In this document: piece by piece, positions 5,228-60,025 of the stretch
Position numbering within the stretch: the first letter of the stretch is position 1
How the letters are laid out: each line of letters opens with the position of its first letter
Assembly (NCBI GenBank): GCA_964016885.1
Contig: OZ024752.1
Span: forward strand, 14,508,001-14,572,000
DNA from: Eledone cirrhosa
Lineage: Eukaryota
Length of the DNA stretch: 64,000 bases
Reading direction: 5' to 3'
Made by a program: the position numbers and the translations under genes
Notes under the pieces: model-generated
Database searches by the model: none
The model's input: the letters and a program-made list of their open reading frames with translations, nothing else
What the model was told of the DNA's origin: nothing

Positions 5228-5398
5228 TTATGAATAAATGTATATATATATTTATGAATAAATGTATATATATATTTATGATTAAATGTATATATATATT
5301 TATGAATAAATACATATATATATATATATATATGAATAAATATATAAATATATATATATATATATATTTATTCATAAATATATATATATATATATATG
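4657..5398. repeat. Compound (CATA)n/(TA)n/(AAT)n microsatellites
   Basis: Direct inspection. Confidence 0.95.
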
Positions 5399-5742
5399 GA
5401 AAGTTATATTTACAATTGTTGGGTTACAACTAGTAAATATTTATAACTGATATAAAAGCACTCGACAAATATTTGGAGTATATTTACAATATTAAATAAA
5501 TGGAAACTATATTTATAAAACCATATTTATTTCATTATATATATTTCGGGGATATCATATTAACAATATGCTATGCCTTCCTCAGACAAAATACAATATA
5601 AACAGTTTTATAGATAAATATATTCGACATACCTTAATAACACCGACTTGCATTTGGAGAGGTTAAAACAGGCAGTGAAAAAATTTTACACAGAGAGAAA
5701 GAGAGATTATTTTTCAAAGCTAAATTATTTTTTTTCAAAGCT

Positions 5743-6357
5743 AAATTATTTTTCAAAGCTCTTGATAATCGCTTCCCTAGAACACATAGGTATCACTCTA
5801 TTTTCAATAGGCATACAATTAAATTAACCTACTCATCCACCAAAAATTTAGCACAAAATATTAATAGAATAAATAATAGGAACTTAAAACCTAGTGATAA
5901 TAGCATAAATAATATACAAGTTAACAAATGTAACTGTAGAGATAGATCTAAATGTCCGTTAAATAACAACTGCTTAGTTAAAAATATAGTATACAATTGT
6001 AATGTTAATACTGACTCTAATTCTTTTAACTACGTCGGTTCCACATCGACGGAATTTAAACTTCGCTATAATAACCACAAGAATTCTTTCACAGATCCAA
6101 GTAAAAAATTTTCAACGGCACTATCAGGCGTACTCTGGCAACTTAAGCTAGATAACGTTAGATATTCGACGGCTTGGAATATAGTCTCAAGAGGGATTCC
6201 TTTTAATTCATCCTCTGAGACATGTGACCTCTGCGCAGAGGAGATATTCTTTATACTAAAATCTAAAAATTCCCTTAATCTACGGACAAATTTATTCAGT
6301 TGTTGCAAACATAGATTAAACTCAACGTTTAAATATAAATTTAAATTTAAAATGTAG
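5743..6357 (+). pseudogene. PLE linker + GIY-YIG endonuclease fragment
   Basis: Open frame without ATG: CNCRDRSKCPLNNNCLVKNIVYNC..YVGSTSTEFKLRYNNHK..CDLCAEE..SCCKH..*. It is homologous to the C-terminal part of the ORF at 62047-63999. Confidence 0.88.
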
Positions 6358-7754
6358 TATATTTAGTTTGATTTATGTTTATATGGGAAACTAGCCGATA
6401 CATTTTTGATTCCTTAAATTTTTGATTCCTTCTTTTTATTCTTTTTTTATTGTTTATTTATTTTTATTTTATTTTTATTTAAACATTCCTCATGAAAAAT
6501 TAAGCTACCCTAAAAGCTGATGCTCCAAATATTTTGAATAAACCTTACACTAGATAAACTTCTATATTAAATATAAGAACACATGTAGACCAATTCGGAC
6601 ATCATAAACTTTTTGAAATGATCTTTGCTAGATGTGATTTGATAGATAATTTTTTAACTTTGTCTTATAATGAACTTGGCAATATATTGTCAATTAATTT
6701 TGAAGGGTTGATCTTTGTGGTTTATTTTTATTTTTATTTTTTATTTATTTTTTATTATTGTAGTATTTTATAATATTTTTTAATATCTTTAATATGTAAA
6801 AAAATTTTAATACGTAATATATTTTTTAATATGTAATATTTTTAATATGTAATATTCTTTCGTAATTATTTTTTAGTTTTCTATTTTATTATTACTTATT
6901 ATTATTATTATTGTTATCTTTTTATTTTTTTAGTTTTGCTTTCTGATATATATTTTTTATTAGTATATTGAAATCTGCTCTCTATTTCTGCTTGATAGAT
7001 AATCTTGTAGAGTAAAGACAGGAATAATAATACACATATATGTATACTCAAATTTTTATACCACATTTTTTATACCACATTGAGAATGTTTTCTGTGAAC
7101 TTGGAGTTTGCAGAGTTGATCATGTGGATATTTGTAGATATCACATAAACATATGAATTTTTTTAAAAAACTAAACATAAGATAATTAATTTTCACACAC
7201 TATGGATACTTGTCTCATTCAGGAATACTGATATTTACAATATAGTGGAAGTTTTATAAATACTAATACATTAAAACATAGGGTTTTTACGCCTCGATTA
7301 TATCTGGCTATTTTTAAATTTTTTCTCTCGCTATTTTTTCTCTCTCTATATTTTTTTCTCTCTATATATATCTCCCTTACATTAATACTTGAGCTAAATA
7401 AATAAATAAATAAATAAATGTATCATTGATACATTTACTGAACTGACCTCCCATTACCTAATTTTCTATATATTATGTATCTATCTCTATTTCCTCTCTC
7501 TCTCTATATATATATATATCTCTTTCTGTTTCTTTACATGAAGTTCTTCTCTCTATCTATCTTTCCATCTCTCTATTTTGTTCCATGCATTTCTTCTTTT
7601 TCTTCCTTTTCTTCGTTTTCTGTCTTTCTTTCTTTTTTCTCTCTCTCTTTCTCTCTGTGTAAAATTTTTTCACTGCCTGTTTTAACCTCTCCAAATGCAA
7701 GTCGGTGTTATTAAGGTATGTCGAATATATTTATCTATAAAACTGTTTATATTG

Positions 7755-7820
7755 TATTTTGTCTGAGGAAGTCATAGCATATTGTTAATATGATATCCCC
7801 GAAATATATATAATGAAATA
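7755..7820 (+). ncRNA. Type I hammerhead ribozyme in PLE 3' pLTR (inverted copy at 5528-5593, minus strand)
   Basis: tattttgt CTGAGGA [stem II with catatt/aatatg] GAAA tatata TA atgaaata. Stem I has 8 bp including G-U pairs; stem III is palindromic. Confidence 0.72.
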
Positions 7821-7886
7821 AATATGGTTTTATAAATATAGTTTCCATTTATTTAATATTGTATATATATATATATATATATATGA

Positions 7887-15584: not shown

Positions 15585-15586
15585 CT

Positions 15587-18577: not shown

Positions 18578-20540
<1,963 letters not shown>

Positions 20541-23500
20541 ATAAAAACAAATAACGAAACGAAATTAAATTTCGTTTCGTTTGTAACTCACTTTTGTATG
20601 ACTGGCGCTTAAACAATTAAGTTAAAAATGTACATCCACATATGTATACTGAAATACTAGTATGCATATGAATACACACACGTGTACATATGTAGATGTA
20701 CCGAGTTTTCACTGGTCACTTTACTGTGAGTGTCCAGCTATTCCGTATGTAGACACACAGACAAACCGGTTCTTAGAGTCATACTGGTTTTTGAGGAAAC
20801 ACCTTTCCTCTATTCTCCAGAAAGCCAGACAAGGAATATTGGACTAGTTTCGATGTTGTTACATCTCATCAGCAATATTTACCTATCTTCCGGCTTCTCT
20901 AGAGAATCGTGAAAGCACATATCGTTATATGCTTTTTCTATGAAAATTAGTAGTGGGCAGACCAATTTGCATAGAGCGTGAGTACGTACCGGTTCAACGG
21001 AGACGATAAAAACAAATAACGAAACGAAATTAAATTTCGTTTCGTTTGTAACTCACTTTTGTATGACTGGCGCTTAAACAATTAAGTTAAAAATGTACAT
21101 CCACATATGTATACTGAAATACTAGTATGCATATGAATACACACACGTGTACATATGTAGATGTACCGAGTTTTCACTGGTCACTTTACTGTGAGTGTCC
21201 AGCTATTCCGTATGTAGACACACAGACAAACCGGTTCTTAGAGTCATACTGGTTTTTGAGGAAACACCTTTCCTCTATTCTCCAGAAAGCCAGACAAGGA
21301 ATATTGGACTAGTTTCGATGTTGTTACATCTCATCAGCAATATTTACCTATCTTCCGGCTTCTCTAGAGAATCGTGAAAGCACATATCGTTATATGCTTT
21401 TTCTATGAAAATTAGTAGTGGGCAGACCAATTTGCATAGAGCGTGAGTACGTACCGGTTCAACGGAGACGATAAAAACAAATAACGAAACGAAATTAAAT
21501 TTCGTTTTGTTTGTAACTCACTTTTGTATGACTGGCGCTTAAACAATTAAGTTAAAAATGTACATCCACATATGTATACTGAAATACTAGTATGCATATG
21601 AATACACACACGTGTACATATGTAGATGTACCGAGTTTTCACTGGTCACTTTACTGTGAGTGTCCAGCTATTCCGTATGTAGACACACAGACAAACCGGT
21701 TCTTAGAGTCATACTGGTTTTTGAGGAAACACCTTTCCTCTATTCTCCAGAAAGCCAGACAAGGAATATTGGACTAGTTTCGATGTTGTTACATCTCATC
21801 AGCAATATTTACCTATCTTCCGGCTTCTCTAGAGAATCGTGAAAGCACATATCGTTATATGCTTTTTCTATGAAAATTAGTAGTGGGCAGACCAATTTGC
21901 ATAGAGCGTGAGTACGTACCGGTTCAACGGAGACGATAAAAACAAATAACGAAACGAAATTAAATTTCGTTTCGTTTGTAACTCACTTTTGTATGACTGG
22001 CGCTTAAACAATTAAGTTAAAAATGTACATCCACATATGTATACTGAAATACTAGTATGCATATGAATACACACACGTGTACATATGTAGATGTACCGAG
22101 TTTTCACTGGTCACTTTACTGTGAGTGTCCAGCTATTCCGTATGTAGACACACAGACAAACCGGTTCTTAGAGTCATACTGGTTTTTGAGGAAACACCTT
22201 TCCTCTATTCTCCAGAAAGCCAGACAAGGAATATTGGACTAGTTTCGATGTTGTTACATCTCATCAGCAATATTTACCTATCTTCCGGCTTCTCTAGAGA
22301 ATCGTGAAAGCACATATCGTTATATGCTTTTTCTATGAAAATTAGTAGTGGGCAGACCAATTTGCATAGAGCGTGAGTACGTACCGGTTCAACGGAGACG
22401 ATAAAAACAAATAACGAAACGAAATTAAATTTCGTTTAGTTTGTAACTCACTTTTGTATGACTGGCGCTTAAACAATTAAGTTAAAAATGTACATCCACA
22501 TATGTATACTGAAATACTAGTATGCATATGAATACACACACGTGTACATATGTAGATGTACCGAGTTTTCACTGGTCACTTTACTGTGAGTGTCCAGCTA
22601 TTCCGTATGTAGACACACAGACAAACCGGTTCTTAGAGTCATACTGGTTTTTGAGGAAACACCTTTCCTCTATTCTCCAGAAAGCCAGACAAGGAATATT
22701 GGACTAGTTTCGATGTTGTTACATCTCATCAGCAATATTTACCTATCTTCCGGCTTCTCTAGAGAATCGTGAAAGCACATATCGTTATATGCTTTTTCTA
22801 TGAAAATTAGTAGTGGGCAGACCAATTTGCATAGAGCGTGAGTACGTACCGGTTCAACGGAGACGATAAAAACAAATAACGAAACGAAATTAAATTTCGT
22901 TTCGTTTGTAACTCACTTTTGTATGACTGGCGCTTAAACAATTAAGTTAAAAATGTACATCCACATATGTATACTGAAATACTAGTATGCATATGAATAC
23001 ACACACGTGTACATATGTAGATGTACCGAGTTTTCACTGGTCACTTTACTGTGAGTGTCCAGCTATTCCGTATGTAGACACACAGACAAACCGGTTCTTA
23101 GAGTCATACTGGTTTTTGAGGAAACACCTTTCCTCTATTCTCCAGAAAGCCAGACAAGGAATATTGGACTAGTTTCGATGTTGTTACATCTCATCAGCAA
23201 TATTTACCTATCTTCCGGCTTCTCTAGAGAATCGTGAAAGCACATATCGTTATATGCTTTTTCTATGAAAATTAGTAGTGGGCAGACCAATTTGCATAGA
23301 GCGTGAGTACGTACCGGTTCAACGGAGACGATAAAAACAAATAACGAAACGAAATTAAATTTCGTTTCGTTTGTAACTCACTTTTGTATGACTGGCGCTT
23401 AAACAATTAAGTTAAAAATGTACATCCACATATGTATACTGAAATACTAGTATGCATATGAATACACACACGTGTACATATGTAGATGTACCGAGTTTTC

Positions 23501-26500
23501 ACTGGTCACTTTACTGTGAGTGTCCAGCTATTCCGTATGTAGACACACAGACAAACCGGTTCTTAGAGTCATACTGGTTTTTGAGGAAACACCTTTCCTC
23601 TATTCTCCAGAAAGCCAGACAAGGAATATTGGACTAGTTTCGATGTTGTTACATCTCATCAGCAATATTTACCTATCTTCCGGCTTCTCTAGAGAATCGT
23701 GAAAGCACATATCGTTATATGCTTTTTCTATGAAAATTAGTAGTGGGCAGACCAATTTGCATAGAGCGTGAGTACGTACCGGTTCAACGGAGACGATAAA
23801 AACAAATAACGAAACGAAATTAAATTTCGTTTCGTTTGTAACTCACTTTTGTATGACTGGCGCTTAAACAATTAAGTTAAAAATGTACATCCACATATGT
23901 ATACTGAAATACTAGTATGCATATGAATACACACACGTGTACATATGTAGATGTACCGAGTTTTCACTGGTCACTTTACTGTGAGTGTCCAGCTATTCCG
24001 TATGTAGACACACAGACAAACCGGTTCTTAGAGTCATACTGGTTTTTGAGGAAACACCTTTCCTCTATTCTCCAGAAAGCCAGACAAGGAATATTGGACT
24101 AGTTTCGATGTTGTTACATCTCATCAGCAATATTTACCTATCTTCCGGCTTCTCTAGAGAATCGTGAAAGCACATATCGTTATATGCTTTTTCTATGAAA
24201 ATTAGTAGTGGGCAGACCAATTTGCATAGAGCGTGAGTACGTACCGGTTCAACGGAGACGATAAAAACAAATAACGAAACGAAATTAAATTTCGTTTCGT
24301 TTGTAACTCACTTTTGTATGACTGGCGCTTAAACAATTAAGTTAAAAATGTACATCCACATATGTATACTGAAATACTAGTATGCATATGAATACACACA
24401 CGTGTACATATGTAGATGTACCGAGTTTTCACTGGTCACTTTACTGTGAGTGTCCAGCTATTCCGTATGTAGACACACAGACAAACCGGTTCTTAGAGTC
24501 ATACTGGTTTTTGAGGAAACACCTTTCCTCTATTCTCCAGAAAGCCAGACAAGGAATATTGGACTAGTTTCGATGTTGTTACATCTCATCAGCAATATTT
24601 ACCTATCTTCCGGCTTCTCTAGAGAATCGTGAAAGCACATATCGTTATATGCTTTTTCTATGAAAATTAGTAGTGGGCAGACCAATTTGCATAGAGCGTG
24701 AGTACGTACCGGTTCAACGGAGACGATAAAAACAAATAACGAAACGAAATTAAATTTCGTTTCGTTTGTAACTCACTTTTGTATGACTGGCGCTTAAACA
24801 ATTAAGTTAAAAATGTACATCCACATATGTATACTGAAATACTAGTATGCATATGAATACACACACGTGTACATATGTAGATGTACCGAGTTTTCACTGG
24901 TCACTTTACTGTGAGTGTCCAGCTATTCCGTATGTAGACACACAGACAAACCGGTTCTTAGAGTCATACTGGTTTTTGAGGAAACACCTTTCCTCTATTC
25001 TCCAGAAAGCCAGACAAGGAATATTGGACTAGTTTCGATGTTGTTACATCTCATCAGCAATATTTACCTATCTTCCGGCTTCTCTAGAGAATCGTGAAAG
25101 CACATATCGTTATATGCTTTTTCTATGAAAATTAGTAGTGGGCAGACCAATTTGCATAGAGCGTGAGTACGTACCGGTTCAACGGAGACGATAAAAACAA
25201 ATAACGAAACGAAATTAAATTTCGTTTCGTTTGTAACTCACTTTTGTATGACTGGCGCTTAAACAATTAAGTTAAAAATGTACATCCACATATGTATACT
25301 GAAATACTAGTATGCATATGAATACACACACGTGTACATATGTAGATGTACCGAGTTTTCACTGGTCACTTTACTGTGAGTGTCCAGCTATTCCGTATGT
25401 AGACACACAGACAAACCGGTTCTTAGAGTCATACTGGTTTTTGAGGAAACACCTTTCCTCTATTCTCCAGAAAGCCAGACAAGGAATATTGGACTAGTTT
25501 CGATGTTGTTACATCTCATCAGCAATATTTACCTATCTTCCGGCTTCTCTAGAGAATCGTGAAAGCACATATCGTTATATGCTTTTTCTATGAAAATTAG
25601 TAGTGGGCAGACCAATTTGCATAGAGCGTGAGTACGTACCGGTTCAACGGAGATGATAAAAACAAATAACGAAACGAAATTAAATTTCGTTTCGTTTGTA
25701 ACTCACTTTTGTATGACTGGCGCTTAAACAATTAAGTTAAAAATGTACATCCACATATGTATACTGAAATACTAGTATGCATATGAATACACACACGTGT
25801 ACATATGTAGATGTACCGAGTTTTCACTGGTCACTTTACTGTGAGTGTCCAGCTATTCCGTATGTAGACACACAGACAAACCGGTTCTTAGAGTCATACT
25901 GGTTTTTGAGGAAACACCTTTCCTCTATTCTCCAGAAAGCCAGACAAGGAATATTGGACTAGTTTCGATGTTGTTACATCTCATCAGCAATATTTACCTA
26001 TCTTCCGGCTTCTCTAGAGAATCGTGAAAGCACATATCGTTATATGCTTTTTCTATGAAAATTAGTAGTGGGCAGACCAATTTGCATAGAGCGTGAGTAC
26101 GTACCGGTTCAACGGAGACGATAAAAACAAATAACGAAACGAAATTAAATTTCGTTTCGTTTGTAACTCACTTTTGTATGACTGGCGCTTAAACAATTAA
26201 GTTAAAAATGTACATCCACATATGTATACTGAAATACTAGTATGCATATGAATACACACACGTGTACATATGTAGATGTACCGAGTTTTCACTGGTCACT
26301 TTACTGTGAGTGTCCAGCTATTCCGTATGTAGACACACAGACAAACCGGTTCTTAGAGTCATACTGGTTTTTGAGGAAACACCTTTCCTCTATTCTCCAG
26401 AAAGCCAGACAAGGAATATTGGACTAGTTTCGATGTTGTTACATCTCATCAGCAATATTTACCTATCTTCCGGCTTCTCTAGAGAATCGTGAAAGCACAT

Positions 26501-29500
26501 ATCGTTATATGCTTTTTCTATGAAAATTAGTAGTGGGCAGACCAATTTGCATAGAGCGTGAGTACGTACCGGTTCAACGGAGACGATAAAAACAAATAAC
26601 GAAACGAAATTAAATTTCGTTTCGTTTGTAACTCACTTTTGTATGACTGGCGCTTAAACAATTAAGTTAAAAATGTACATCCACATATGTATACTGAAAT
26701 ACTAGTATGCATATGAATACACACACGTGTACATATGTAGATGTACCGAGTTTTCACTGGTCACTTTACTGTGAGTGTCCAGCTATTCCGTATGTAGACA
26801 CACAGACAAACCGGTTCTTAGAGTCATACTGGTTTTTGAGGAAACACCTTTCCTCTATTCTCCAGAAAGCCAGACAAGGAATATTGGACTAGTTTCGATG
26901 TTGTTACATCTCATCAGCAATATTTACCTATCTTCCGGCTTCTCTAGAGAATCGTGAAAGCACATATCGTTATATGCTTTTTCTATGAAAATTAGTAGTG
27001 GGCAGACCAATTTGCATAGAGCGTGAGTACGTACCGGTTCAACGGAGACGATAAAAACAAATAACGAAACGAAATTAAATTTCGTTTCGTTTGTAACTCA
27101 CTTTTGTATGACTGGCGCTTAAACAATTAAGTTAAAAATGTACATCCACATATGTATACTGAAATACTAGTATGCATATGAATACACACACGTGTACATA
27201 TGTAGATGTACCGAGTTTTCACTGGTCACTTTACTGTGAGTGTCCAGCTATTCCGTATGTAGACACACAGACAAACCGGTTCTTAGAGTCATACTGGTTT
27301 TTGAGGAAACACCTTTCCACTATTCTCCAGAAAGCCAGACAAGGAATATTGGACTAGTTTCGATGTTGTTACATCTCATCAGCAATATTTACCTATCTTC
27401 CGGCTTCTCTAGAGAATCGTGAAAGCACATATCGTTATATGCTTTTTCTATGAAAATTAGTAGTGGGCAGACCAATTTGCATAGAGCGTGAGTACGTACC
27501 GGTTCAACGGAGACGATAAAAACAAATAACGAAACGAAATTAAATTTCGTTTCGTTTGTAACTCACTTTTGTATGACTGGCGCTTAAACAATTAAGTTAA
27601 AAATGTACATCCACATATGTATACTGAAATACTAGTATGCATATGAATACACACACGTGTACATATGTAGATGTACCGAGTTTTCACTGGTCACTTTACT
27701 GTGAGTGTCCAGCTATTCCGTATGTAGACACACAGACAAACCGGTTCTTAGAGTCATACTGGTTTTTGAGGAAACACCTTTCCTCTATTCTCCAGAAAGC
27801 CAGACAAGGAATATTGGACTAGTTTCGATGTTGTTACATCTCATCAGCAATATTTACCTATCTTCCGGCTTCTCTAGAGAATCGTGAAAGCACATATCGT
27901 TATATGCTTTTTCTATGAAAATTAGTAGTGGGCAGACCAATTTGCATAGAGCGTGAGTACGTACCGGTTCAACGGAGACGATAAAAACAAATAACGAAAC
28001 GAAATTAAATTTCGTTTCGTTTGTAACTCACTTTTGTATGACTGGCGCTTAAACAATTAAGTTAAAAATGTACATCCACATATGTATACTGAAATACTAG
28101 TATGCATATGAATACACACACGTGTACATATGTAGATGTACCGAGTTTTCACTGGTCACTTTACTGTGAGTGTCCAGCTATTCCGTATGTAGACACACAG
28201 ACAAACCGGTTCTTAGAGTCATACTGGTTTTTGAGGAAACACCTTTCCTCTATTCTCCAGAAAGCCAGACAAGGAATATTGGACTAGTTTCGATGTTGTT
28301 ACATCTCATCAGCAATATTTACCTATCTTCCGGCTTCTCTAGAGAATCGTGAAAGCACATATCGTTATATGCTTTTTCTATGAAAATTAGTAGTGGGCAG
28401 ACCAATTTGCATAGAGCGTGAGTACGTACCGGTTCAACGGAGACGATAAAAACAAATAACGAAACGAAATTAAATTTCGTTTCGTTTGTAACTCACTTTT
28501 GTATGACTGGCGCTTAAACAATTAAGTTAAAAATGTACATCCACATATGTATACTGAAATACTAGTATGCATATGAATACACACACGTGTACATATGTAG
28601 ATGTACCGAGTTTTCACTGGTCACTTTACTGTGAGTGTCCAGCTATTCCGTATGTAGACACACAGACAAACCGGTTCTTAGAGTCATACTGGTTTTTGAG
28701 GAAACACCTTTCCTCTATTCTCCAGAAAGCCAGACAAGGAATATTGGACTAGTTTCGATGTTGTTACATCTCATCAGCAATATTTACCTATCTTCCGGCT
28801 TCTCTAGAGAATCGTGAAAGCACATATCGTTATATGCTTTTTCTATGAAAATTAGTAGTGGGCAGACCAATTTGCATAGAGCGTGAGTACGTACCGGTTC
28901 AACGGAGACGATAAAAACAAATAACGAAACGAAATTAAATTTCGTTTCGTTTGTAACTCACTTTTGTATGACTGGCGCTTAAACAATTAAGTTAAAAATG
29001 TACATCCACATATGTATACTGAAATACTAGTATGCATATGAATACACACACGTGTACATATGTAGATGTACCGAGTTTTCACTGGTCACTTTACTGTGAG
29101 TGTCCAGCTATTCCGTATGTAGACACACAGACAAACCGGTTCTTAGAGTCATACTGGTTTTTGAGGAAACACCTTTCCTCTATTGTCAAAGCCAGACAAG
29201 GAATATTTGACTAGTTTCGATGTTGTTACATCTCATCAGCAATATTTACCTATCTTCCGGCTTCTCTAGAGAATCGTGAAAGCACATATCGTTATATGCT
29301 TTTTCTATGAAAATTAGTAGTGGGCAGACCAATTTGCATAGAGCGTGAGTACGTACCGGTTCAACGGAGACGATAAAAACAAATAACGAAACGAAATTAA
29401 ATTTCGTTTCGTTTGTAACTCACTTTTGTATGACTGGCGCTTAAACAATTAAGTTAAAAATGTACATCCACATATGTATACTGAAATACTAGTATGCTAT

Positions 29501-32500
29501 GAATACACACACGTGTACATATGTAGATGTACCGAGTTTTCACTGGTCACTTTACTGTGAGTGTCCAGCTATTCCGTATGTAGACACACAGACAAACCGG
29601 TTCTTAGAGTCATACTGGTTTTTGAGGAAACACCTTTCCTCTATTCTCCAGAAAGCCAGACAAGGAATATTGGACTAGTTTCGATGTTGTTACATCTCAT
29701 CAGCAATATTTACCTATCTTCCGGCTTCTCTAGAGAATCGTGAAAGCACATATCGTTATATGCTTTTTCTATGAAAATTAGTAGTGGGCAGACCAATTTG
29801 CATAGAGCGTGAGTACGTACCGGTTCAACGGAGACGATAAAAACAAATAACGAAACGAAATTAAATTTCGTTTCGTTTGTAACTCACTTTTGTATGACTG
29901 GCGCTTAAACAATTAAGTTAAAAATGTACATCCACATATGTATACTGAAATACTAGTATGCATATGAATACACACACGTGTACATATGTAGATGTACCGA
30001 GTTTTCACTGGTCACTTTACTGTGAGTGTCCAGCTATTCCGTATGTAGACACACAGACAAACCGGTTCTTAGAGTCATACTGGTTTTTGAGGAAACACCT
30101 TTCCTCTATTCTCCAGAAAGCCAGACAAGGAATATTGGACTAGTTTCGATGTTGTTACATCTCATCAGCAATATTTACCTATCTTCCGGCTTCTCTAGAG
30201 AATCGTGAAAGCACATATCGTTATATGCTTTTTCTATGAAAATTAGTAGTGGGCAGACCAATTTGCATAGAGCGTGAGTACGTACCGGTTCAACGGAGAC
30301 GATAAAAACAAATAACGAAACGAAATTAAATTTCGTTTCGTTTGTAACTCACTTTTGTATGACTGGCGCTTAAACAATTAAGTTAAAAATGTACATCCAC
30401 ATATGTATACTGAAATACTAGTATGCATATGAATACACACACGTGTACATATGTAGATGTACCGAGTTTTCACTGGTCACTTTACTGTGAGTGTCCAGCT
30501 ATTCCGTATGTAGACACACAGACAAACCGGTTCTTAGAGTCATACTGGTTTTTGAGGAAACACCTTTCCTCTATTCTCCAGAAAGCCAGACAAGGAATAT
30601 TGGACTAGTTTCGATGTTGTTACATCTCATCAGCAATATTTACCTATCTTCCGGCTTCTCTAGAGAATCGTGAAAGCACATATCGTTATATGCTTTTTCT
30701 ATGAAAATTAGTAGTGGGCAGACCAATTTGCATAGAGCGTGAGTACGTACCGGTTCAACGGAGATGATAAAAACAAATAACGAAACGAAATTAAATTTCG
30801 TTTCGTTTGTAACTCACTTTTGTATGACTGGCGCTTAAACAATTAAGTTAAAAATGTACATCCACATATGTATACTGAAATACTAGTATGCATATGAATA
30901 CACACACGTGTACATATGTAGATGTACCGAGTTTTCACTGGTCACTTTACTGTGAGTGTCCAGCTATTCCGTATGTAGACACACAGACAAACCGGTTCTT
31001 AGAGTCATACTGGTTTTTGAGGAAACACCTTTCCTCTATTCTCCAGAAAGCCAGACAAGGAATATTGGACTAGTTTCGATGTTGTTACATCTCATCAGCA
31101 ATATTTACCTATCTTCCGGCTTCTCTAGAGAATCGTGAAAGCACATATCGTTATATGCTTTTTCTATGAAAATTAGTAGTGGGCAGACCAATTTGCATAG
31201 AGCGTGAGTACGTACCGGTTCAACGGAGACGATAAAAACAAATAACGAAACGAAATTAAATTTCGTTTCGTTTGTAACTCACTTTTGTATGACTGGCGCT
31301 TAAACAATTAAGTTAAAAATGTACATCCACATATGTATACTGAAATACTAGTATGCATATGAATACACACACGTGTACATATGTAGATGTACCGAGTTTT
31401 CACTGGTCACTTTACTGTGAGTGTCCAGCTATTCCGTATGTAGACACACAGACAAACCGGTTCTTAGAGTCATACTGGTTTTTGAGGAAACACCTTTCCT
31501 CTATTCTCCAGAAAGCCAGACAAGGAATATTGGACTAGTTTCGATGTTGTTACATCTCATCAGCAATATTTACCTATCTTCCGGCTTCTCTAGAGAATCG
31601 TGAAAGCACATATCGTTATATGCTTTTTCTATGAAAATTAGTAGTGGGCAGACCAATTTGCATAGAGCGTGAGTACGTACCGGTTCAACGGAGACGATAA
31701 AAACAAATAACGAAACGAAATTAAATTTCGTTTCGTTTGTAACTCACTTTTGTATGACTGGCGCTTAAACAATTAAGTTAAAAATGTACATCCACATATG
31801 TATACTGAAATACTAGTATGCATATGAATACACACACGTGTACATATGTAGATGTACCGAGTTTTCACTGGTCACTTTACTGTGAGTGTCCAGCTATTCC
31901 GTATGTAGACACACAGACAAACCGGTTCTTAGAGTCATACTGGTTTTTGAGGAAACACCTTTCCTCTATTCTCCAGAAAGCCAGACAAGGAATATTGGAC
32001 TAGTTTCGATGTTGTTACATCTCATCAGCAATATTTACCTATCTTCCGGCTTCTCTAGAGAATCGTGAAAGCACATATCGTTATATGCTTTTTCTATGAA
32101 AATTAGTAGTGGGCAGACCAATTTGCATAGAGCGTGAGTACGTACCGGTTCAACGGAGACGATAAAAACAAATAACGAAACGAAATTAAATTTCGTTTCG
32201 TTTGTAACTCACTTTTGTATGACTGGCGCTTAAACAATTAAGTTAAAAATGTACATCCACATATGTATACTGAAATACTAGTATGCATATGAATACACAC
32301 ACGTGTACATATGTAGATGTACCGAGTTTCCACTGGTCACTTTACTGTGAGTGTCCAGCTATTCCGTATGTAGACACACAGACAAACCGGTTCTTAGAGT
32401 CATACTGGTTTTTGAGGAAACACCTTTCCACTATTCTCCAGAAAGCCAGACAAGGAATATTGGACTAGTTTCGATGTTGTTACATCTCATCAGCAATATT

Positions 32501-35500
32501 TACCTATCTTCCGGCTTCTCTAGAGAATCGTGAAAGCACATATCGTTATATGCTTTTTCTATGAAAATTAGTAGTGGGCAGACCAATTTGCATAGAGCGT
32601 GAGTACGTACCGGTTCAACGGAGACGATAAAAACAAATAACGAAACGAAATTAAATTTCGTTTCGTTTGTAACTCACTTTTGTATGACTGGCGCTTAAAC
32701 AATTAAGTTAAAAATGTACATCCACATATGTATACTGAAATACTAGTATGCATATGAATACACACACGTGTACATATGTAGATGTACCGAGTTTTCACTG
32801 GTCACTTTACTGTGAGTGTCCAGCTATTCCGTATGTAGACACACAGACAAACCGGTTCTTAGAGTCATACTGGTTTTTGAGGAAACACCTTTCCTCTATT
32901 CTCCAGAAAGCCAGACAAGGAATATTGGACTAGTTTCGATGTTGTTACATCTCATCAGCAATATTTACCTATCTTCCGGCTTCTCTAGAGAATCGTGAAA
33001 GCACATATCGTTATATGCTTTTTCTATGAAAATTAGTAGTGGGCAGACCAATTTGCATAGAGCGTGAGTACGTACCGGTTCAACGGAGACGATAAAAACA
33101 AATAACGAAACGAAATTAAATTTCGTTTCGTTTGTAACTCACTTTTGTATGACTGGCGCTTAAACAATTAAGTTAAAAATGTACATCCACATATGTATAC
33201 TGAAATACTAGTATGCATATGAATACACACACGTGTACATATGTAGATGTACCGAGTTTTCACTGGTCACTTTACTGTGAGTGTCCAGCTATTCCGTATG
33301 TAGACACACAGACAAACCGGTTCTTAGAGTCATACTGGTTTTTGAGGAAACACCTTTCCTCTATTCTCCAGAAAGCCAGACAAGGAATATTGGACTAGTT
33401 TCGATGTTGTTACATCTCATCAGCAATATTTACCTATCTTCCGGCTTCTCTAGAGAATCGTGAAAGCACATATCGTTATATGCTTTTTCTATGAAAATTA
33501 GTAGTGGGCAGACCAATTTGCATAGAGCGTGAGTACGTACCGGTTCAACGGAGACGATAAAAACAAATAACGAAACGAAATTAAATTTCGTTTCGTTTGT
33601 AACTCACTTTTGTATGACTGGCGCTTAAACAATTAAGTTAAAAATGTACATCCACATATGTATACTGAAATACTAGTATGCATATGAATACACACACGTG
33701 TACATATGTAGATGTACCGAGTTTTCACTGGTCACTTTACTGTGAGTGTCCAGCTATTCCGTATGTAGACACACAGACAAACCGGTTCTTAGAGTCATAC
33801 TGGTTTTTGAGGAAACACCTTTCCTCTATTCTCCAGAAAGCCAGACAAGGAATATTGGACTAGTTTCGATGTTGTTACATCTCATCAGCAATATTTACCT
33901 ATCTTCCGGCTTCTCTAGAGAATCGTGAAAGCACATATCGTTATATGCTTTTTCTATGAAAATTAGTAGTGGGCAGACCAATTTGCATAGAGCGTGAGTA
34001 CGTACCGGTTCAACGGAGACGATAAAAACAAATAACGAAACGAAATTAAATTTCGTTTCGTTTGTAACTCACTTTTGTATGACTGGCGCTTAAACAATTA
34101 AGTTAAAAATGTACATCCACATATGTATACTGAAATACTAGTATGCATATGAATACACACACGTGTACATATGTAGATGTACCGAGTTTTCACTGGTCAC
34201 TTTACTGTGAGTGTCCAGCTATTCCGTATGTAGACACACAGACAAACCGGTTCTTAGAGTCATACTGGTTTTTGAGGAAACACCTTTCCTCTATTCTCCA
34301 GAAAGCCAGACAAGGAATATTGGACTAGTTTCGATGTTGTTACATCTCATCAGCAATATTTACCTATCTTCCGGCTTCTCTAGAGAATCGTGAAAGCACA
34401 TATCGTTATATGCTTTTTCTATGAAAATTAGTAGTGGGCAGACCAATTTGCATAGAGCGTGAGTACGTACCGGTTCAACGGAGACGATAAAAACAAATAA
34501 CGAAACGAAATTAAATTTCGTTTCGTTTGTAACTCACTTTTGTATGACTGGCGCTTAAACAATTAAGTTAAAAATGTACATCCACATATGTATACTGAAA
34601 TACTAGTATGCATATGAATACACACACGTGTACATATGTAGATGTACCGAGTTTTCACTGGTCACTTTACTGTGAGTGTCCAGCTATTCCGTATGTAGAC
34701 ACACAGACAAACCGGTTCTTAGAGTCATACTGGTTTTTGAGGAAACACCTTTCCTCTATTCTCCAGAAAGCCAGACAAGGAATATTGGACTAGTTTCGAT
34801 GTTGTTACATCTCATCAGCAATATTTACCTATCTTCCGGCTTCTCTAGAGAATCGTGAAAGCACATATCGTTATATGCTTTTTCTATGAAAATTAGTAGT
34901 GGGCAGACCAATTTGCATAGAGCGTGAGTACGTACCGGTTCAACGGAGACGATAAAAACAAATAACGAAACGAAATTAAATTTCGTTTCGTTTGTAACTC
35001 ACTTTTGTATGACTGGCGCTTAAACAATTAAGTTAAAAATGTACATCCACATATGTATACTGAAATACTAGTATGCATATGAATACACACACGTGTACAT
35101 ATGTAGATGTACCGAGTTTTCACTGGTCACTTTACTGTGAGTGTCCAGCTATTCCGTATGTAGACACACAGACAAACCGGTTCTTAGAGTCATACTGGTT
35201 TTTGAGGAAACACCTTTCCTCTATTCTCCAGAAAGCCAGACAAGGAATATTGGACTAGTTTCGATGTTGTTACATCTCATCAGCAATATTTACCTATCTT
35301 CCGGCTTCTCTAGAGAATCGTGAAAGCACATATCGTTATATGCTTTTTCTATGAAAATTAGTAGTGGGCAGACCAATTTGCATAGAGCGTGAGTACGTAC
35401 CGGTTCAACGGAGACGATAAAAACAAATAACGAAACGAAATTAAATTTCGTTTCGTTTGTAACTCACTTTTGTATGACTGGCGCTTAAACAATTAAGTTA

Positions 35501-38500
35501 AAAATGTACATCCACATATGTATACTGAAATACTAGTATGCATATGAATACACACACGTGTACATATGTAGATGTACCGAGTTTTCACTGGTCACTTTAC
35601 TGTGAGTGTCCAGCTATTCCGTATGTAGACACACAGACAAACCGGTTCTTAGAGTCATACTGGTTTTTGAGGAAACACCTTTCCACTATTCTCCAGAAAG
35701 CCAGACAAGGAATATTGGACTAGTTTCGATGTTGTTACATCTCATCAGCAATATTTACCTATCTTCCGGCTTCTCTAGAGAATCGTGAAAGCACATATCG
35801 TTATATGCTTTTTCTATGAAAATTAGTAGTGGGCAGACCAATTTGCATAGAGCGTGAGTACGTACCGGTTCAACGGAGACGATAAAAACAAATAACGAAA
35901 CGAAATTAAATTTCGTTTCGTTTGTAACTCACTTTTGTATGACTGGCGCTTAAACAATTAAGTTAAAAATGTACATCCACATATGTATACTGAAATACTA
36001 GTATGCATATGAATACACACACGTGTACATATGTAGATGTACCGAGTTTTCACTGGTCACTTTACTGTGAGTGTCCAGCTATTCCGTATGTAGACACACA
36101 GACAAACCGGTTCTTAGAGTCATACTGGTTTTTGAGGAAACACCTTTCCTCTATTCTCCAGAAAGCCAGACAAGGAATATTGGACTAGTTTCGATGTTGT
36201 TACATCTCATCAGCAATATTTACCTATCTTCCGGCTTCTCTAGAGAATCGTGAAAGCACATATCGTTATATGCTTTTTCTATGAAAATTAGTAGTGGGCA
36301 GACCAATTTGCATAGAGCGTGAGTACGTACCGGTTCAACGGAGACGATAAAAACAAATAACGAAACGAAATTAAATTTCGTTTCGTTTGTAACTCACTTT
36401 TGTATGACTGGCGCTTAAACAATTAAGTTAAAAATGTACATCCACATATGTATACTGAAATACTAGTATGCATATGAATACACACACGTGTACATATGTA
36501 GATGTACCGAGTTTTCACTGGTCACTTTACTGTGAGTGTCCAGCTATTCCGTATGTAGACACACAGACAAACCGGTTCTTAGAGTCATACTGGTTTTTGA
36601 GGAAACACCTTTCCTCTATTCTCCAGAAAGCCAGACAAGGAATATTGGACTAGTTTCGATGTTGTTACATCTCATCAGCAATATTTACCTATCTTCCGGC
36701 TTCTCTAGAGAATCGTGAAAGCACATATCGTTATATGCTTTTTCTATGAAAATTAGTAGTGGGCAGACCAATTTGCATAGAGCGTGAGTACGTACCGGTT
36801 CAACGGAGACGATAAAAACAAATAACGAAACGAAATTAAATTTCGTTTCGTTTGTAACTCACTTTTGTATGACTGGCGCTTAAACAATTAAGTTAAAAAT
36901 GTACATCCACATATGTATACTGAAATACTAGTATGCATATGAATACACACACGTGTACATATGTAGATGTACCGAGTTTTCACTGGTCACTTTACTGTGA
37001 GTGTCCAGCTATTCCGTATGTAGACACACAGACAAACCGGTTCTTAGAGTCATACTGGTTTTTGAGGAAACACCTTTCCTCTATTCTCCAGAAAGCCAGA
37101 CAAGGAATATTGGACTAGTTTCGATGTTGTTACATCTCATCAGCAATATTTACCTATCTTCCGGCTTCTCTAGAGAATCGTGAAAGCACATATCGTTATA
37201 TGCTTTTTCTATGAAAATTAGTAGTGGGCAGACCAATTTGCATAGAGCGTGAGTACGTACCGGTTCAACGGAGACGATAAAAACAAATAACGAAACGAAA
37301 TTAAATTTCGTTTCGTTTGTAACTCACTTTTGTATGACTGGCGCTTAAACAATTAAGTTAAAAATGTACATCCACATATGTATACTGAAATACTAGTATG
37401 CATATGAATACACACACGTGTACATATGTAGATGTACCGAGTTTTCACTGGTCACTTTACTGTGAGTGTCCAGCTATTCCGTATGTAGACACACAGACAA
37501 ACCGGTTCTTAGAGTCATACTGGTTTTTGAGGAAACACCTTTCCTCTATTCTCCAGAAAGCCAGACAAGGAATATTGGACTAGTTTCGATGTTGTTACAT
37601 CTCATCAGCAATATTTACCTATCTTCCGGCTTCTCTAGAGAATCGTGAAAGCACATATCGTTATATGCTTTTTCTATGAAAATTAGTAGTGGGCAGACCA
37701 ATTTGCATAGAGCGTGAGTACGTACCGGTTCAACGGAGACGATAAAAACAAATAACGAAACGAAATTAAATTTCGTTTCGTTTGTAACTCACTTTTGTAT
37801 GACTGGCGCTTAAACAATTAAGTTAAAAATGTACATCCACATATGTATACTGAAATACTAGTATGCTATGAATACACACACGTGTACATATGTAGATGTA
37901 CCGAGTTTTCACTGGTCACTTTACTGTGAGTGTCCAGCTATTCCGTATGTAGACACACAGACAAACCGGTTCTTAGAGTCATACTGGTTTTTGAGGAAAC
38001 ACCTTTCCTCTATTCTCCAGAAAGCCAGACAAGGAATATTGGACTAGTTTCGATGTTGTTACATCTCATCAGCAATATTTACCTATCTTCCGGCTTCTCT
38101 AGAGAATCGTGAAAGCACATATCGTTATATGCTTTTTCTATGAAAATTAGTAGTGGGCAGACCAATTTGCATAGAGCGTGAGTACGTACCGGTTCAACGG
38201 AGACGATAAAAACAAATAACGAAACGAAATTAAATTTCGTTTCGTTTGTAACTCACTTTTGTATGACTGGCGCTTAAACAATTAAGTTAAAAATGTACAT
38301 CCACATATGTATACTGAAATACTAGTATGCATATGAATACACACACGTGTACATATGTAGATGTACCGAGTTTTCACTGGTCACTTTACTGTGAGTGTCC
38401 AGCTATTCCGTATGTAGACACACAGACAAACCGGTTCTTAGAGTCATACTGGTTTTTGAGGAAACACCTTTCCTCTATTCTCCAGAAAGCCAGACAAGGA

Positions 38501-38751
38501 ATATTGGACTAGTTTCGATGTTGTTACATCTCATCAGCAATATTTACCTATCTTCCGGCTTCTCTAGAGAATCGTGAAAGCACATATCGTTATATGCTTT
38601 TTCTATGAAAATTAGTAGTGGGCAGACCAATTTGCATAGAGCGTGAGTACGTACCGGTTCAACGGAGACGATAAAAACAAATAACGAAACGAAATTAAAT
38701 TTCGTTTCGTTTGTAACTCACTTTTGTATGACTGGCGCTTAAACAATTAAG
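20541..38751 (-). repeat. Tandem array of 39 full 465-bp monomers plus a partial one, each with a hammerhead ribozyme core (retrozyme-like satellite)
   Basis: Monomer 20541-21005 recurs every 465 bp (for example ORF-track starts 20662, 21127, ... 38327). Copies are near-identical. The HHR is on the minus strand. Confidence 0.97.
20835..20879 (-). ncRNA. Type I hammerhead ribozyme of monomer 1 (repeated every 465 bp)
   Basis: Minus strand: aatattg CTGATGA gatgt-aaca-acatc GAAA ctag TC caatatt. All core nucleotides are canonical, stem I has 7 bp, stem II has 5 bp, and the cleavage site is GUC. Confidence 0.93.
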
Positions 38752-39709
38752 TTAATTGTTTAAGCGCCAGTCATTAATTGTTTAAGCGCCAGTCATACAA
38801 AAGTGAGTTACAAACGAAACGAAATTTAATTTCGTTTCGTTATTTGTTTTTATCGTCTCCGTTGAACCGGTACGTACTCACGCTCTATGCAAATTGGTCT
38901 GCCCACTACTAATTTTCATAGAAAAAGCATATAACGATATGTGCTTTCACGATTCTCTAGAGAAGCCGGAAGATAGGTAAATATTGCTGATGAGATGTAA
39001 CAACATCGAAACTAGTCCAATATTCCTTGTCTGGCTTTCTGGAGAATAGAGGAAAGGTGTTTCCTCAAAAACGAGTATGACTCTAAGAACCGGTTTGTCT
39101 GTGTGTCTACATACGGAATAGCTGGACACTCACAGTAAAGTGACCAGTGAAAACTCGGTACATCTACATATGTACACGTGTGTGTATTCATATGCATACT
39201 AGTATTTCAGTATACATATGTGGATGTACATTTTTAACTTAATTGTTTAAGCGCCAGTCATACAAAAGTGAGTTACAAACGAAACGAAATTTAATTTCGT
39301 TTCGTTATTTGTTTTTATCGTCTCCGTTGAACCGGTACGTACTCACGCTCTATGCAAATTGGTCTGCCCACTACTAATTTTCATAGAAAAAGCATATAAC
39401 GATATGTGCTTTCACGATTCTCTAGAGAAGCCGGAAGATAGGTAAATATTGCTGATGAGATGTAACAACATCGAAACTAGTCCAATATTCCTTGTCTGGC
39501 TTTCTGGAGAATAGAGGAAAGGTGTTTCCTCAAAAACCAGTATGACTCTAAGAACCGGTTTGTCTGTGTGTCTACATACGGAATAGCTGGACACTCACAG
39601 TAAAGTGACCAGTGAAAACTCGGTACATCTACATATGTACACGTGTGTGTATTCATATGCATACTAGTATTTCAGTATACATATGTGGATGTACATTTTT
39701 AACTTAATT
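38752..39709 (+). repeat. Inverted arm of the 465-bp array (two monomers; HHRs at 38980-39024 and 39445-39489)
   Basis: Reverse complement of the monomer, with a 22-bp tandem duplication at the fold-back junction. Confidence 0.95.
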
Positions 39710-40757
<1,048 letters not shown>

Positions 40758-41086
40758 AATATTATAATGAAATGACAGGAGGCTGGATTTGTGTAAATCC
40801 TTGAAAGGTTTATTATACTATGATCATTTCAATGACCGGGTTCCGTATGAATCCGGTGATATCATCAGGTATTCGAAATATAATATGTGAATGTAATAGA
40901 TAAAATCCATGGGGCTGAAAATCGAGGACCCGAGGGCGACCGCTATTCTGTTCCTTCAACCTCAGCCGGTCGCCCTGGATGATATCACCGGATTCATACG
41001 GAACCCGGTCATTGAAATGATCATAGTATAATAAACCTTTCAAGGATTTACACAAATCCAGCCTCCTGTCATTTCATTATAATATT
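40758..41086. repeat. Inverted repeat (40758-40866 / 40978-41086), pLTR-like, with an HHR at 40815-40872 on the minus strand
   Basis: Perfect 109-bp arms. Minus strand: atac CTGATGA [accgg..ccggt stem II] GAAA tgatca TA gtat. Confidence 0.85.
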
Positions 41087-41218
41087 TAACTCCGTAATAG
41101 CACCACCAACTACAAAAACAAAGACGGTTGTACTGCTTTACGTTGAGTACTCTCTATATTATTGCATTACGATTGACCATACGGAATAGACCAGCTCTAT
41201 ACCTCAAACCTGAATAAA

Positions 41219-42149: not shown

Positions 42150-42789
42150 TAGAAATTGAGGTTTTTTTACAAAATGAAAAATAACCGAGGTGTCCTACAC
42201 GAGTGAAAGTATAAAGAAAAAAAGATGAAATCGAAAATGCAACTGGAGCCTTATTTTTTTAAAAATATATATATTTATTTGGTTCCTTTACCGGTTTCGC
42301 AGTTCTTCTGCTATTCAAAAGTAGAGTTGAGATGGAGGTTCTGTGAATTTTCTCACATCTGTCAAAATACACACACGCAAACGCATGCGCAAAGAATACA
42401 AAATAAAATAAACAAATAAATAAATATATAAACAGACTAACTAAAATGGCGTAGAAAATACAATGTAACGGGAGGAAAAAATAGCACCACTGACGATGTT
42501 GCAGATGTGCAACGAAAGAACTTTGATAAACTATATATATGTGTTTGTGTCTATATTGTATCTGTATTATTTTTGACCGTTGGTCAGTCAATGGCACATT
42601 GAGGACCGAATAAATCAGATTACCGATATAAAAGACACAGAAGCGAAAAGCGAAAACCAACCAAACAGTGAGTGTGTTCTGTTATTAATTCTGGCAATAT
42701 TACACAAATATGACCCTCCCCAAGTATAACAATATTTGTTTCGACACACGATTTCATATCAAAAACCTCGCAAAACTAATTCATCCCCG

Positions 42790-42790
<1 letters not shown>
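42150..42790 (+). mobile_element. Solo pLTR/3' end of a PLE related to the 58141-59955 element, with an HHR-like motif at 42488-42525
   Basis: Shares blocks with 59610-59955 (gcatgcgcaaa, aaaatggcgtag, ctcccaa.gtataacaatat, acacacgatttca). Motif: ca CTGACGA t-gttgca-gatg-tgcaac GAAA gaac TT tg. Confidence 0.7.
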
Positions 42791-58080: not shown

Positions 58081-58145
<65 letters not shown>

Positions 58146-58570
58146 TAAGGAACATATGTTAAAATTTAATGGTAAAACATATGCCCAAGAGGAAGGAGCA
58201 TCCATTGGTGTTAGCATTGCAGGCGACATAGCTAACTTATTTATGGTATGGTGGGACAGTAGACTTAAACAAAAACTTAAAGAACAATTAGAAGACAGCT
58301 TAACCCTGATAATGTACTCCCGCTACGTAGATGATATAAACATTGTAGTTAAGACACCCCCACTAAAGAACAGTCAGGAACTAGAGAAAAACACAATGGA
58401 AAGCATCCAGCAAATAGCAAACTCCATCCACCAGAGCATTAGAGTTACTAGTTGCTATAGACTACCCAAGTAGACACCCCAACCATCGATTACCTGTACT
58501 AGACACAGAGCTCTGGTTAGATACCATTAACAACGAAAAACAAATCCTCCATTCCCATTATACCAAACCC

Positions 58571-59461
58571 ATGACTTCCAAACATCTGATCCACCGAAAC
58601 TCGGCCATTTCGGACCATACCAAAATCAACATACTGATTGCGGATTTGGTACGGGTGATGAGAAATGTGTCCCGTATGTGCAACCCCGAAGAACTAGAGA
58701 GCCACATACAACACTTCATCCACGGTATGCAGTTCTCTGGCTACAATCAGAGAGATAGAATCAGAGTGTATAAAGGAGCCAGAACCAAATGGGAAAAAAT
58801 GGTAAATACTGACATAAATGGGACCTGCCCCTTGTATAGGAGCAAATTTTGGAATAGAATAGAAAGAACTAGGAACAAGGCCAATAGAATAAACTCATGG
58901 TACGATAGCAATAAATACCAGAGTGTAATGTTCATCAATACAACCCCTAGAGGCGAACTAGCCTACAAATTTAGAAGGGCCCTAAATAAACATAAACTCA
59001 ATATTAAGATAGTAGAAAGACCAGGTACCTCGGTAAAAACACTTATTAGCAAGACATACCCGTTCCAAAGACCCTCATGTATAGATAAGAAATGTATAAC
59101 CTGTAAAATAAGCCCCCATATTAACTGTAAAACTAGAAATATAGTGTATATAATAAGATGTACTGAAGGACAATGTAGAAACAAAAATATAGTGTACATA
59201 GGTGAGACAGCTCGTAGTATAGGGGAACGAATAAATGAACACTGGCGAGACCTTCAAGATAATAAAGAATCATCTGTGCTCTACCAACATGCTGAGATAG
59301 AACACAGGGGTAGATTAGAGAACATAGAAATAAAAATAGAATCCACACACACAAAAGATGCAATGTTTAGGCAAATTACAGAGGCAGTAAGCATAAAAGA
59401 ATTACAACCAAAATTAAATACAAAATATGAGAGGAACAACAACATCACAACTTACAATTAA
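58571..59461 (+). pseudogene. PLE thumb/linker + GIY-YIG endonuclease (296-aa open segment)
   Basis: ORF track; IVY..YIGET..ER..EH GIY-YIG signature. Confidence 0.88.
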
Positions 59462-59687
59462 GGACAAAATGAAAACACACACAGGACAAAATGAAAACAC
59501 ACACACACATAGAACAAACAACCACCCAACAATAAATAAATAAATAAATAAACAAATAGATAAATGAACACAAACACACACAGACACCCGGATGTGGCGC
59601 ATGCGCAAACTGAGCACACAACACACAGAAACAAAATGGCGTAGGATAGAAGAAAGGAAAGGCACAGAAACAAAGAAAGGAATCCCC

Positions 59688-59732
59688 AGTCACTGAAGAG
59701 GTCACAGACTGTGTGACGAAAGAACTATGACT
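59688..59732 (+). ncRNA. Minimal type I hammerhead ribozyme in PLE 3' pLTR
   Basis: agtca CTGAAGA g-gtcac-agactgt-gtgac GAAA gaac TA tgact. Confidence 0.8.
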
Positions 59733-59954
59733 ATATATAAACAACTATCTGGTTGTGGAACCAACCAACCAACCAGAAATTTATAAATTTGTAGATTTGT
59801 AAATTTATAACTTTATAAATATATAATAAATTGAAGTGAATGTATCTGGTGCGTGTGTTTCTTATTGGCAACATGACACTCCCAAAGTATAACAATATCG
59901 GTTTCAACACACGATTTCAGATAAAGAATCTTGCTAAACAAATTCAGAAACGAA

Positions 59955-60025
<71 letters not shown>

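Follow-up and report, generated by a model that had tools for sequence, protein, structure and literature searches.

Structure of the hammerhead array

The 64,000-nt stretch of the Eledone cirrhosa genome analysed here (contig OZ024752.1, positions 14,508,001 to 14,572,000; hereafter the window) contains an array of 465-bp units, each carrying a type I hammerhead ribozyme motif, that lies between (AT)n tracts of approximately 2 kb and 1 kb. An earlier note on this sequence had described a satellite of 39 head-to-tail and 2 inverted, near-identical monomers. The count and arrangement were reproduced by Tandem Repeats Finder (TRF), which reported a period of 465 with 39.2 copies at 20541-38755 and 2.0 copies at 38774-39709 (the 39.2-copy figure for this near-identical array is as assembled), and by the hammerhead anchor, which had 39 occurrences on the minus strand and two on the plus strand. 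The term satellite did not survive comparison with the rest of the genome, as described below.

We numbered the unit in the hammerhead sense from the predicted cut, with position 1 at window position 20841 on the minus strand, and defined two sites within it, S1 (unit 224-232) and S2 (unit 299-302). The long arm adjoins the (AT)n tract at 20541 with its 3' end (unit 301, S2) and has its 5' junction at unit 217; the short inverted arm has the same haplotype and adjoins the opposite tract with its 3' end at unit 227 (S1). The window insertion is thus bounded by an S2 end (20541) and an S1 end (39709), and a tail is present at one end only, on the 20541 side. In the first unit the hammerhead core and short stem I occupy 20835-20879, and the predicted cut falls between 20842 and 20841. 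Where the two arms meet, a 22-nt unit fragment is repeated, suggestive of an aborted start or a template jump.

Among the cleavage-to-cleavage segments of the long arm, 28 of 37 are identical (one segment consists of two merged units). Two variants, A33T (3 copies) and G303A (2 copies), recur within the array, and two pairs share an 11-unit offset. The unit has a GC fraction of 0.37, and the right (AT)n tract carries the same interspersed variant unit as the left tract beside the insertion. The window also holds copies of Penelope-like elements (PLEs), for which we coined the labels PLE-A, PLE-B and PLE-H. Feature coordinates are collected in Table 1.

Table 1. Coordinates of the array, its flanks and the candidate mobilisers within the window (RT, reverse transcriptase)
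Feature	Position	Strand	Basis or remark
PLE-H, young autonomous element, two-armed head-to-head insertion between (AT)n tracts; second candidate mobiliser	5398..7862	+	
Left part of the (AT)n target microsatellite	18589..20540		TRF, sequence
Long arm, 39.17 units, hammerhead-sense RNA on minus	20541..38755	-	TRF, anchor count, alignment
Tail, 74 nt, from S1 (unit 227) to S2 (unit 301)	20541..20614	-	Holds a 13-bp hairpin
Type I hammerhead of the first unit, with extended stem I	20819..20897	-	Repeated every 465 nt
Head-to-head junction, 22-nt unit piece repeated ahead of the second arm	38752..38773	+	
Short inverted arm, 2.01 units, hammerhead-sense on plus	38774..39709	+	Cores at 38987 and 39452
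Right part of the (AT)n target microsatellite	39710..40757		TRF, sequence
PLE-A copy, 5'-truncated, ending at its tail site in (AT)n; candidate mobiliser	58145..59958	+	RT, CX4CXXC linker, C-terminal GIY-YIG

Ribozyme motif, RNA fold and coding content

The hammerhead core reported in the earlier note was recovered as written in 41 of 41 window units, with stem I aauauug/caauauu, CUGAUGA, stem II gaugu/acauc and GAAA-cuag-UC. Helix III consists of a single A-U pair capped by the palindromic loop CUAG, and the predicted pair probabilities of stems I and II range from 0.65 to 1.0. Given that an axolotl/newt motif with such a helix III is described as cleaving poorly as a monomer and well as a dimer (PMC7229834), cleavage of the unit would be expected mainly as a dimer. 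Rfam at gathering thresholds returned 0 matches across the whole window. When the unit dimer was searched, a hammerhead model scored best (Hammerhead_HH9, 38.9 bits, E 3.6e-8), at a value under its cut-off of 52, and the model that the earlier note proposed for such a check, Hammerhead_1, was absent among the 44 Rfam matches listed. The microRNA and sraA matches to the dimer also fell below cut-off and were taken as hairpin matches.

In per-locus profiles, 13 core positions were invariant in 71 loci (the last three in 40 loci), and the stem II pair 443-454 was A-U in 45 loci and U-A in 26, a compensatory exchange. With its invariant core and compensatory stem II pair, the ribozyme is under selection. 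The unit as a whole folds far better than shuffled sequence (z -9.85, 0 of 100 shuffles as good), with a z of -3.18 for the ribozyme region. Subfamily variants render 77 of the 465 unit positions polymorphic, 39 among the 308 paired positions and 38 among the 157 unpaired ones.

Judged from its sequence, the unit is non-coding, consistent with the earlier statement that it holds no credible open reading frame (ORF). Each of the six frames contains 5-11 stops, and the lone ATG-initiated ORF of at least 20 aa (61 aa, antisense) was rejected as unconserved and crossed by indels common in other loci. No tRNA was found in the unit, and comparison of the unit with phage records gave no match.

Contigs from four sequencing runs of unrecorded kind, which give no reading of ends, strand or level, were also compared with the unit. 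In run X5, a contig of depth 3.2 carried seven A>G differences on the plus strand at 21111-21127, within a hairpin; the depth is below 5 and the run is not recorded as RNA. Across 79 genomic loci no variation was seen at five of these seven positions, and the cluster resembles adenosine-to-inosine hyper-editing of antisense RNA. Runs X4 and X6 (labelled organism B and organism C) each yielded one low-depth contig of 495-496 nt, matching window 20647-21470 and comprising a full unit plus a 30-nt overlap with 7 and 16 differences, respectively. Each represents a closed assembly-graph cycle, which tandem DNA or a circle would both yield, and these contigs could derive from related species or carry-over.

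A dispersed family with two fixed end sites

We searched the 3.0-Gb genome and obtained 647 first-look candidates for the unit, 28 of which were scored. Exact S2/(AT) junctions numbered 1,994 genome-wide, exact S1/(AT) junctions 399 on the forward strand (the reverse-strand count of 1,414 is inflated by overlapping matches) and exact hammerhead core patterns 3,136, each with a reversed control of 0. The window array is thus one of at least 1,994 dispersed insertions. Rather than a satellite that expanded in place, it represents one two-armed insertion from a dispersed family, with the two inverted copies forming the second arm; this arm is the array's informative feature.

Insertion anatomy was read in the window and in three samples, namely (a) 20 stretches chosen from similarity matches with their ends unselected, (b) 40 stretches at the first S2 ends on contig C1 without a listed S1 partner, and (c) 20 stretches around unpartnered S1 ends. 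Visual inspection paired approximately 19 of the first 100 S2 ends with a head-to-head S1 end, and these were left out of the samples; in 60 stretches one end was picked by pattern, leaving the other end alone as the test. In the 20 similarity-picked loci and the window, 34 of 35 outer 3' ends lay at 300-301 or 224-232 against (AT)n. Adjacent opposite pieces were head-to-head in 51 of 51 cases with their RNA 3' ends outward, the orientation that inward priming of cDNA from each target 3' end would produce. Across 83 insertions in 81 stretches, the two-ended insertions comprised 53 S1/S2, 1 S1/S1 and 0 S2/S2, with 10 of the 53 S1/S2 calls depending on a short motif match for the second arm; the other 29 comprised 19 single-armed insertions, 6 with another second end and 4 that were cut off. 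The two end sites lie approximately 70 nt apart, with one site per arm. Two of the loci, L124 and L125, look like one duplicated event.

The arms of one locus resemble each other far more closely than those of different loci, with a divergence of 0.64% within loci (44 loci) versus 5.3% between them, and young haplotype markers are common to both arms. Among 226 whole units from 33 loci we found 17 modal haplotypes, and 0 of 43 non-modal variants recurred in another locus. Young loci commonly have arms of 10-18 units, with a maximum of 39 in the window; the C1 sample represents older subfamilies at 85-98% identity, mostly with fewer than 6 units. The cleavage site was crossed by 103 of 127 arms, and of 123 5' junctions, 16 of them alignment splits, 1 fell within 5 nt of it where 2.6 would be expected. 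Because the site is crossed and 5' junctions are not enriched there, a linear cleaved monomer is excluded as the usual template. A pile of 5' junctions at unit 324 was set aside because an insertion specific to a subfamily splits the alignment there. For non-LTR retrozymes, target duplications are given as longer than 4 bp where present; here (AT)n masks any such duplication in most loci, and 4 of 83 insertions (L131, L134, L141 and L151) showed non-AT flank duplications of 32-75 nt. No pair of long terminal repeats (LTRs) was found in the insertions; primer binding sites and polypurine tracts were not separately searched for.

Resident Penelope-like elements share the two-site anatomy

PLE-A gave 41,187 first-look candidates with open frames of up to 1,261 aa. 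Its full-length candidate enzyme occupies an open frame of approximately 1,230 aa, has a CX4CXXC linker as in Neptune/Nematis, and finds its nearest named relative in Octopus vulgaris (70%). The window copy has a minimal hammerhead near 59690, and tandem 4,113-nt hammerhead-to-hammerhead units occur elsewhere (L081:2840-6952). In 20 stretches chosen for long frames or paired matches, 15 held two-ended PLE-A insertions, all head-to-head; 14 of these 15 end at positions 171 (169 once) and 231, one per arm, with AT-rich flanks. These end sites lie just inside the ORF start, as in the Poseidon element PAc. PLE-H carries DKT and CxCX5C, motifs of the Hydra clade (PMC8557442), and gave 62,453 first-look candidates at 99% identity with open frames of approximately 745 aa; its window copy has a tail of 88 nt.

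One locus joins the two kinds of element. In L040, an 8.6-unit retrozyme arm ending at S2 is fused head-to-head to the PLE-A ORF, and the PLE arm is 98% identical to PLE-A over 616 nt, up to the contig end. This junction occurs once in the genome. No PLE-H chimera was present among the 81 retrozyme stretches.

Three further candidates were rejected. In L115 the retrozyme 5' junction is directly followed by a decayed Poseidon-type PLE copy with RT and endonuclease (L115:1659-2825), which lacks a clean tail/(AT)n end and is not counted as a chimera. L126 and L157 represent neighbouring or nested insertions.

A proposed route of mobilisation

The best reading of these observations is that the unit is a non-autonomous, non-coding retroelement, a non-LTR retrozyme that would ride on an endonuclease-bearing PLE. 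Inverted truncated copies, a one-sided tail and (TA)n targets are described as PLE hallmarks (PMC8557442), the stretch separating two internal RT start sites has been identified as the PLE tail, and PAc, a predicted dimer, both cleaves and extends each of the two strands (PMC11167929). PLEs making tandem cDNA from circles have also been proposed, and PLEs are regarded as strong candidate mobilisers of retrozymes on the basis of shared hammerheads, tandem form and co-occurrence (PMC7229834). Given the anatomy of the insertions, it is very probable that a PLE mobilises the unit. That this occurs by PLE-driven two-ended priming on a circle we consider likely, and with regard to the template itself, the evidence leans towards a circle over an uncleaved linear RNA. 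The retrozyme identity, predicted cleavage site and PLE link put forward in the earlier note were borne out as far as sequence can show.

We propose the following course. An array would be transcribed in the hammerhead sense, and the hammerheads, probably acting as dimers, would cut the transcript to 465-nt monomers that are ligated into circles, as in the known family. A PLE RT/GIY-YIG protein would then bind the RNA near its 74-nt tail and open an (AT)n tract, the target observed at the insertions. Both target 3' ends would prime inside the RNA, one at S2 (301) and the other at S1 (224-232), giving the geometry that is seen. Each RT would pass the cleavage junction and circle the template for 0.1 to tens of turns, which would leave the two homogeneous arms that make up the insertions. 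Joining of the two cDNA 5' ends, at positions that vary and often with short templated pieces between them, would be followed by repair, and later unequal exchange may lengthen an array.

A bolder extension, which we advance only tentatively and hold to be possible rather than probable, is that a PLE RT dimer holds one circular RNA at the 70-nt tail, primes both target ends at two fixed sites and rolls for up to approximately 39 turns within one event, yielding 18 kb of cDNA, and that the same dimer can carry two RNAs, the retrozyme and its own PLE RNA, as in L040. If true, the approximately 2,000 insertions would document, for the first time at the genome level, rolling-circle target-primed reverse transcription of a ribozyme-made circular RNA, the RT involved would have a terminal repeat unlike its passenger, and the one-site-per-arm rule would account for PLE tails and inverted repeats generally.

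Several observations weigh against the circle-based PLE route. Cleavage and circle formation of the unit RNA are predictions. PAc in vitro used unprocessed RNA and its hammerhead was dispensable (PMC11167929), so that uncleaved linear multimers would also serve as a possible template. Outside the hammerhead, the predicted circle fold shows 2 compensatory, 16 one-sided and 18 breaking changes; the helices we claim are the hammerhead's only, support for the rest of the circle fold being weak. The variants at an 11-unit offset suggest that part of the 39 copies may have arisen by later DNA-level exchange or assembly. The tail of the unit fits the published definition of a PLE tail but, at approximately 74 nt, exceeds the 30-40 nt given there (PMC8557442, PMC11167929). 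The chimera L040 was seen once only, and its contig, small and unplaced, breaks off within the PLE arm. When compared with the pseudo-LTR (pLTR) and 3' regions of PLE-A, PLE-B and PLE-H, the unit gave local scores of 20-29 against shuffle maxima of 29-38; with no kinship to these three PLE termini, PLE-A and PLE-H are candidate partners only, and a pLTR-derived origin, as suggested for retrozymes of Xenopus (10.64898/2026.07.22.740005), is not seen. Finally, L159 is the S1/S1 insertion, and the plus arm of L149 (301-1440) is mosaic for two subfamily haplotypes. At the end of that arm, the sequence skips from a point shortly beyond the cleavage site to an 8-nt S2 end, an apparent template switch between different retrozyme RNAs.

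The same PLE machinery and start sites could instead have acted on a long uncleaved read-through transcript, with the hammerhead and circles as by-products or acting at another step. PAc inserts unprocessed RNA and hammerhead mutants leave its insertion unchanged (PMC11167929), 8 of 9 predicted retrozyme dimers remained uncleaved in vitro (10.64898/2026.07.22.740005), and the weak helix III, the L149 mosaic and the homogeneous daughters that homogeneous parent arrays would yield all accord with such a template. However, to make arms of 10-18 and up to 39 units, all hammerheads would have to stay uncut along 5-18 kb of RNA; the subfamilies share a conserved catalytic core and stem II pairing, and none of the 43 private variants was passed between arrays. 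We regard an uncleaved template as unlikely.

Far less probable still is mobilisation by a microsatellite-targeting long interspersed nuclear element (LINE), in which the inverted arm would be the product of L1-type twin priming. L1 twin priming yields head-to-head polarity, LINE RTs are present in the window, and the few loci with flank duplications would fit a LINE as well. The second arm nevertheless starts at a fixed site approximately 70 nt from the first and not at variable internal sites, a poly(A) end is absent, PLE-A and PLE-H in the same genome share the two-site anatomy, and the one clean chimera is with a PLE. Spread of an ordinary satellite at the DNA level (by unequal exchange or extrachromosomal circles reinserted at breaks, with the hammerhead as an inherited relic) is equally improbable and largely excluded as the mode of dispersal: it draws on the private variants recurring at an 11-unit offset, by which part of the window array length may have arisen, and on a preprint that favours local amplification of PLE termini (10.64898/2026.07.22.740005), but predicts neither fixed 3' ends, hammerhead-strand-tied polarity nor one site per arm, and is opposed by the short length (fewer than 6 units) of most C1-sample loci and by the invariant core with its compensatory pair.

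The family offers insertion-level evidence on both retrozyme mobilisation, the mechanism of which is stated as remaining to be elucidated (10.64898/2026.07.22.740005), and PLE insertion structure, the complex tandem and inverted form of which is described as unexplained (PMC8557442). This evidence comprises start sites fixed to the nucleotide, the rule of head-to-head polarity, the restriction to one site per arm that resident PLEs share, full-length candidate enzymes from young families, and a chimera, and it renders the mobilisation route of RNA circles directly testable. If the reading is right, it points to an RT that produces long concatemers from an RNA circle.

Relation to known elements

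On every feature that can be tested from sequence, the unit is a new family of non-LTR retrozymes, a known kind of element. It shares with them non-coding tandem units of GC below 50% with one type I hammerhead each (PMC7229834, 10.64898/2026.07.22.740005), a strongly self-paired predicted RNA, and dispersal alongside autonomous PLEs; the one-pair helix III with a palindromic tetraloop recurs in axolotl HHR_Amex1 (PMC7229834). Its 465 nt lie just over the 150-450 bp given for retrozyme units in PMC7229834 and inside the 51-972 bp given in 10.64898/2026.07.22.740005. The large monomer and high copy number that the earlier note had singled out are therefore ordinary, as up to 300 repeats are published (10.64898/2026.07.22.740005) and 62-mers are known from coral (PMC7229834). 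Accumulation of circular retrozyme RNA is reported for coral, mussel and axolotl (PMC7229834), and 1 of 9 predicted retrozyme dimers was cleaved in vitro (10.64898/2026.07.22.740005).

In Xenopus, 24 of 57 retrozyme families are similar to PLE pLTRs, whereas the unit has no such similarity to the PLEs tested, and the pLTR-derivative model of the same preprint did not hold for PLE-A, PLE-B or PLE-H (10.64898/2026.07.22.740005). Endonuclease-bearing PLEs (Poseidon PAc, Neptune/Nematis, Hydra and Naiad) have in common with the unit an inverted 5'-truncated arm, a tail at one end, two internal 3' end sites, (TA)n targets, tandem copies and a type I hammerhead (PMC8557442, PMC11167929). They differ in that the unit has no ORF (neither RT nor GIY-YIG) and in that its hammerhead is full-size with a long stem I, whereas the PLE type is minimal. 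Tail length also differs, at approximately 74 nt in the unit, 60 nt in PLE-A and approximately 88 nt in PLE-H against the published 30-40 nt. PLE-A shows about two units per arm at most in the sampled loci, in contrast to up to 39 in the retrozyme. Chlamys elements such as MRC1 are likewise non-autonomous PLE passengers with multicopy head-to-tail insertions, but their 3' end resembles that of the autonomous partner and most lack a hammerhead, whereas the unit has a hammerhead and no detected partner similarity (PMC8557442).

The earlier description of the unit as viroid-like stands for its size and fold, which together with the hammerhead and high self-pairing are shared with hammerhead viroids and viroid-like satellite RNAs. 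It does not extend to replication, since nothing here indicates RNA-to-RNA copying, at which no search was aimed; unlike viroids, the unit has a type I hammerhead in one polarity only and is DNA-encoded in thousands of copies.

The suggestion that the family may be undescribed agrees with our literature search, which met no description of this family or of any cephalopod retrozyme, with supplements, Repbase and Dfam outside its scope. Inverted arms, tails and microsatellite targets are not reported for retrozymes in the main texts of PMC7229834 and 10.64898/2026.07.22.740005, and the accessible text of a centromere atlas preprint (10.64898/2026.09.17.752431) contains no hammerhead or retrozyme passage.

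Other elements in the window

Directly past the right (AT)n tract, at 40758-41090, lies a 333-bp imperfect palindrome formed by two unequal head-to-head arms of another repeat, which is also found beside L112 and L126 and is probably a miniature insertion of a further PLE-like family. A short non-coding piece of PLE-B at 42150-42790 has a minimal hammerhead-like motif near 42474 and ends in (AT)n. The PLE-B tail is approximately 85% like that of PLE-A, and many small two-armed PLE-B copies occur in other loci; this piece is possibly another non-autonomous PLE passenger. An older PLE-H-related copy is present at 62089-63978 with 45-47% protein identity.

Helitron-like remnants occupy 45526-50165, with a PIF1 helicase match (E 3e-33) at 48263-48970, and 14062-15585, and a 95-nt repeat occurs in them at 15377 and 49794. 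A broken LINE at 9253-12151 retains endonuclease-like and RT frames (RVT_1, E 3e-8).

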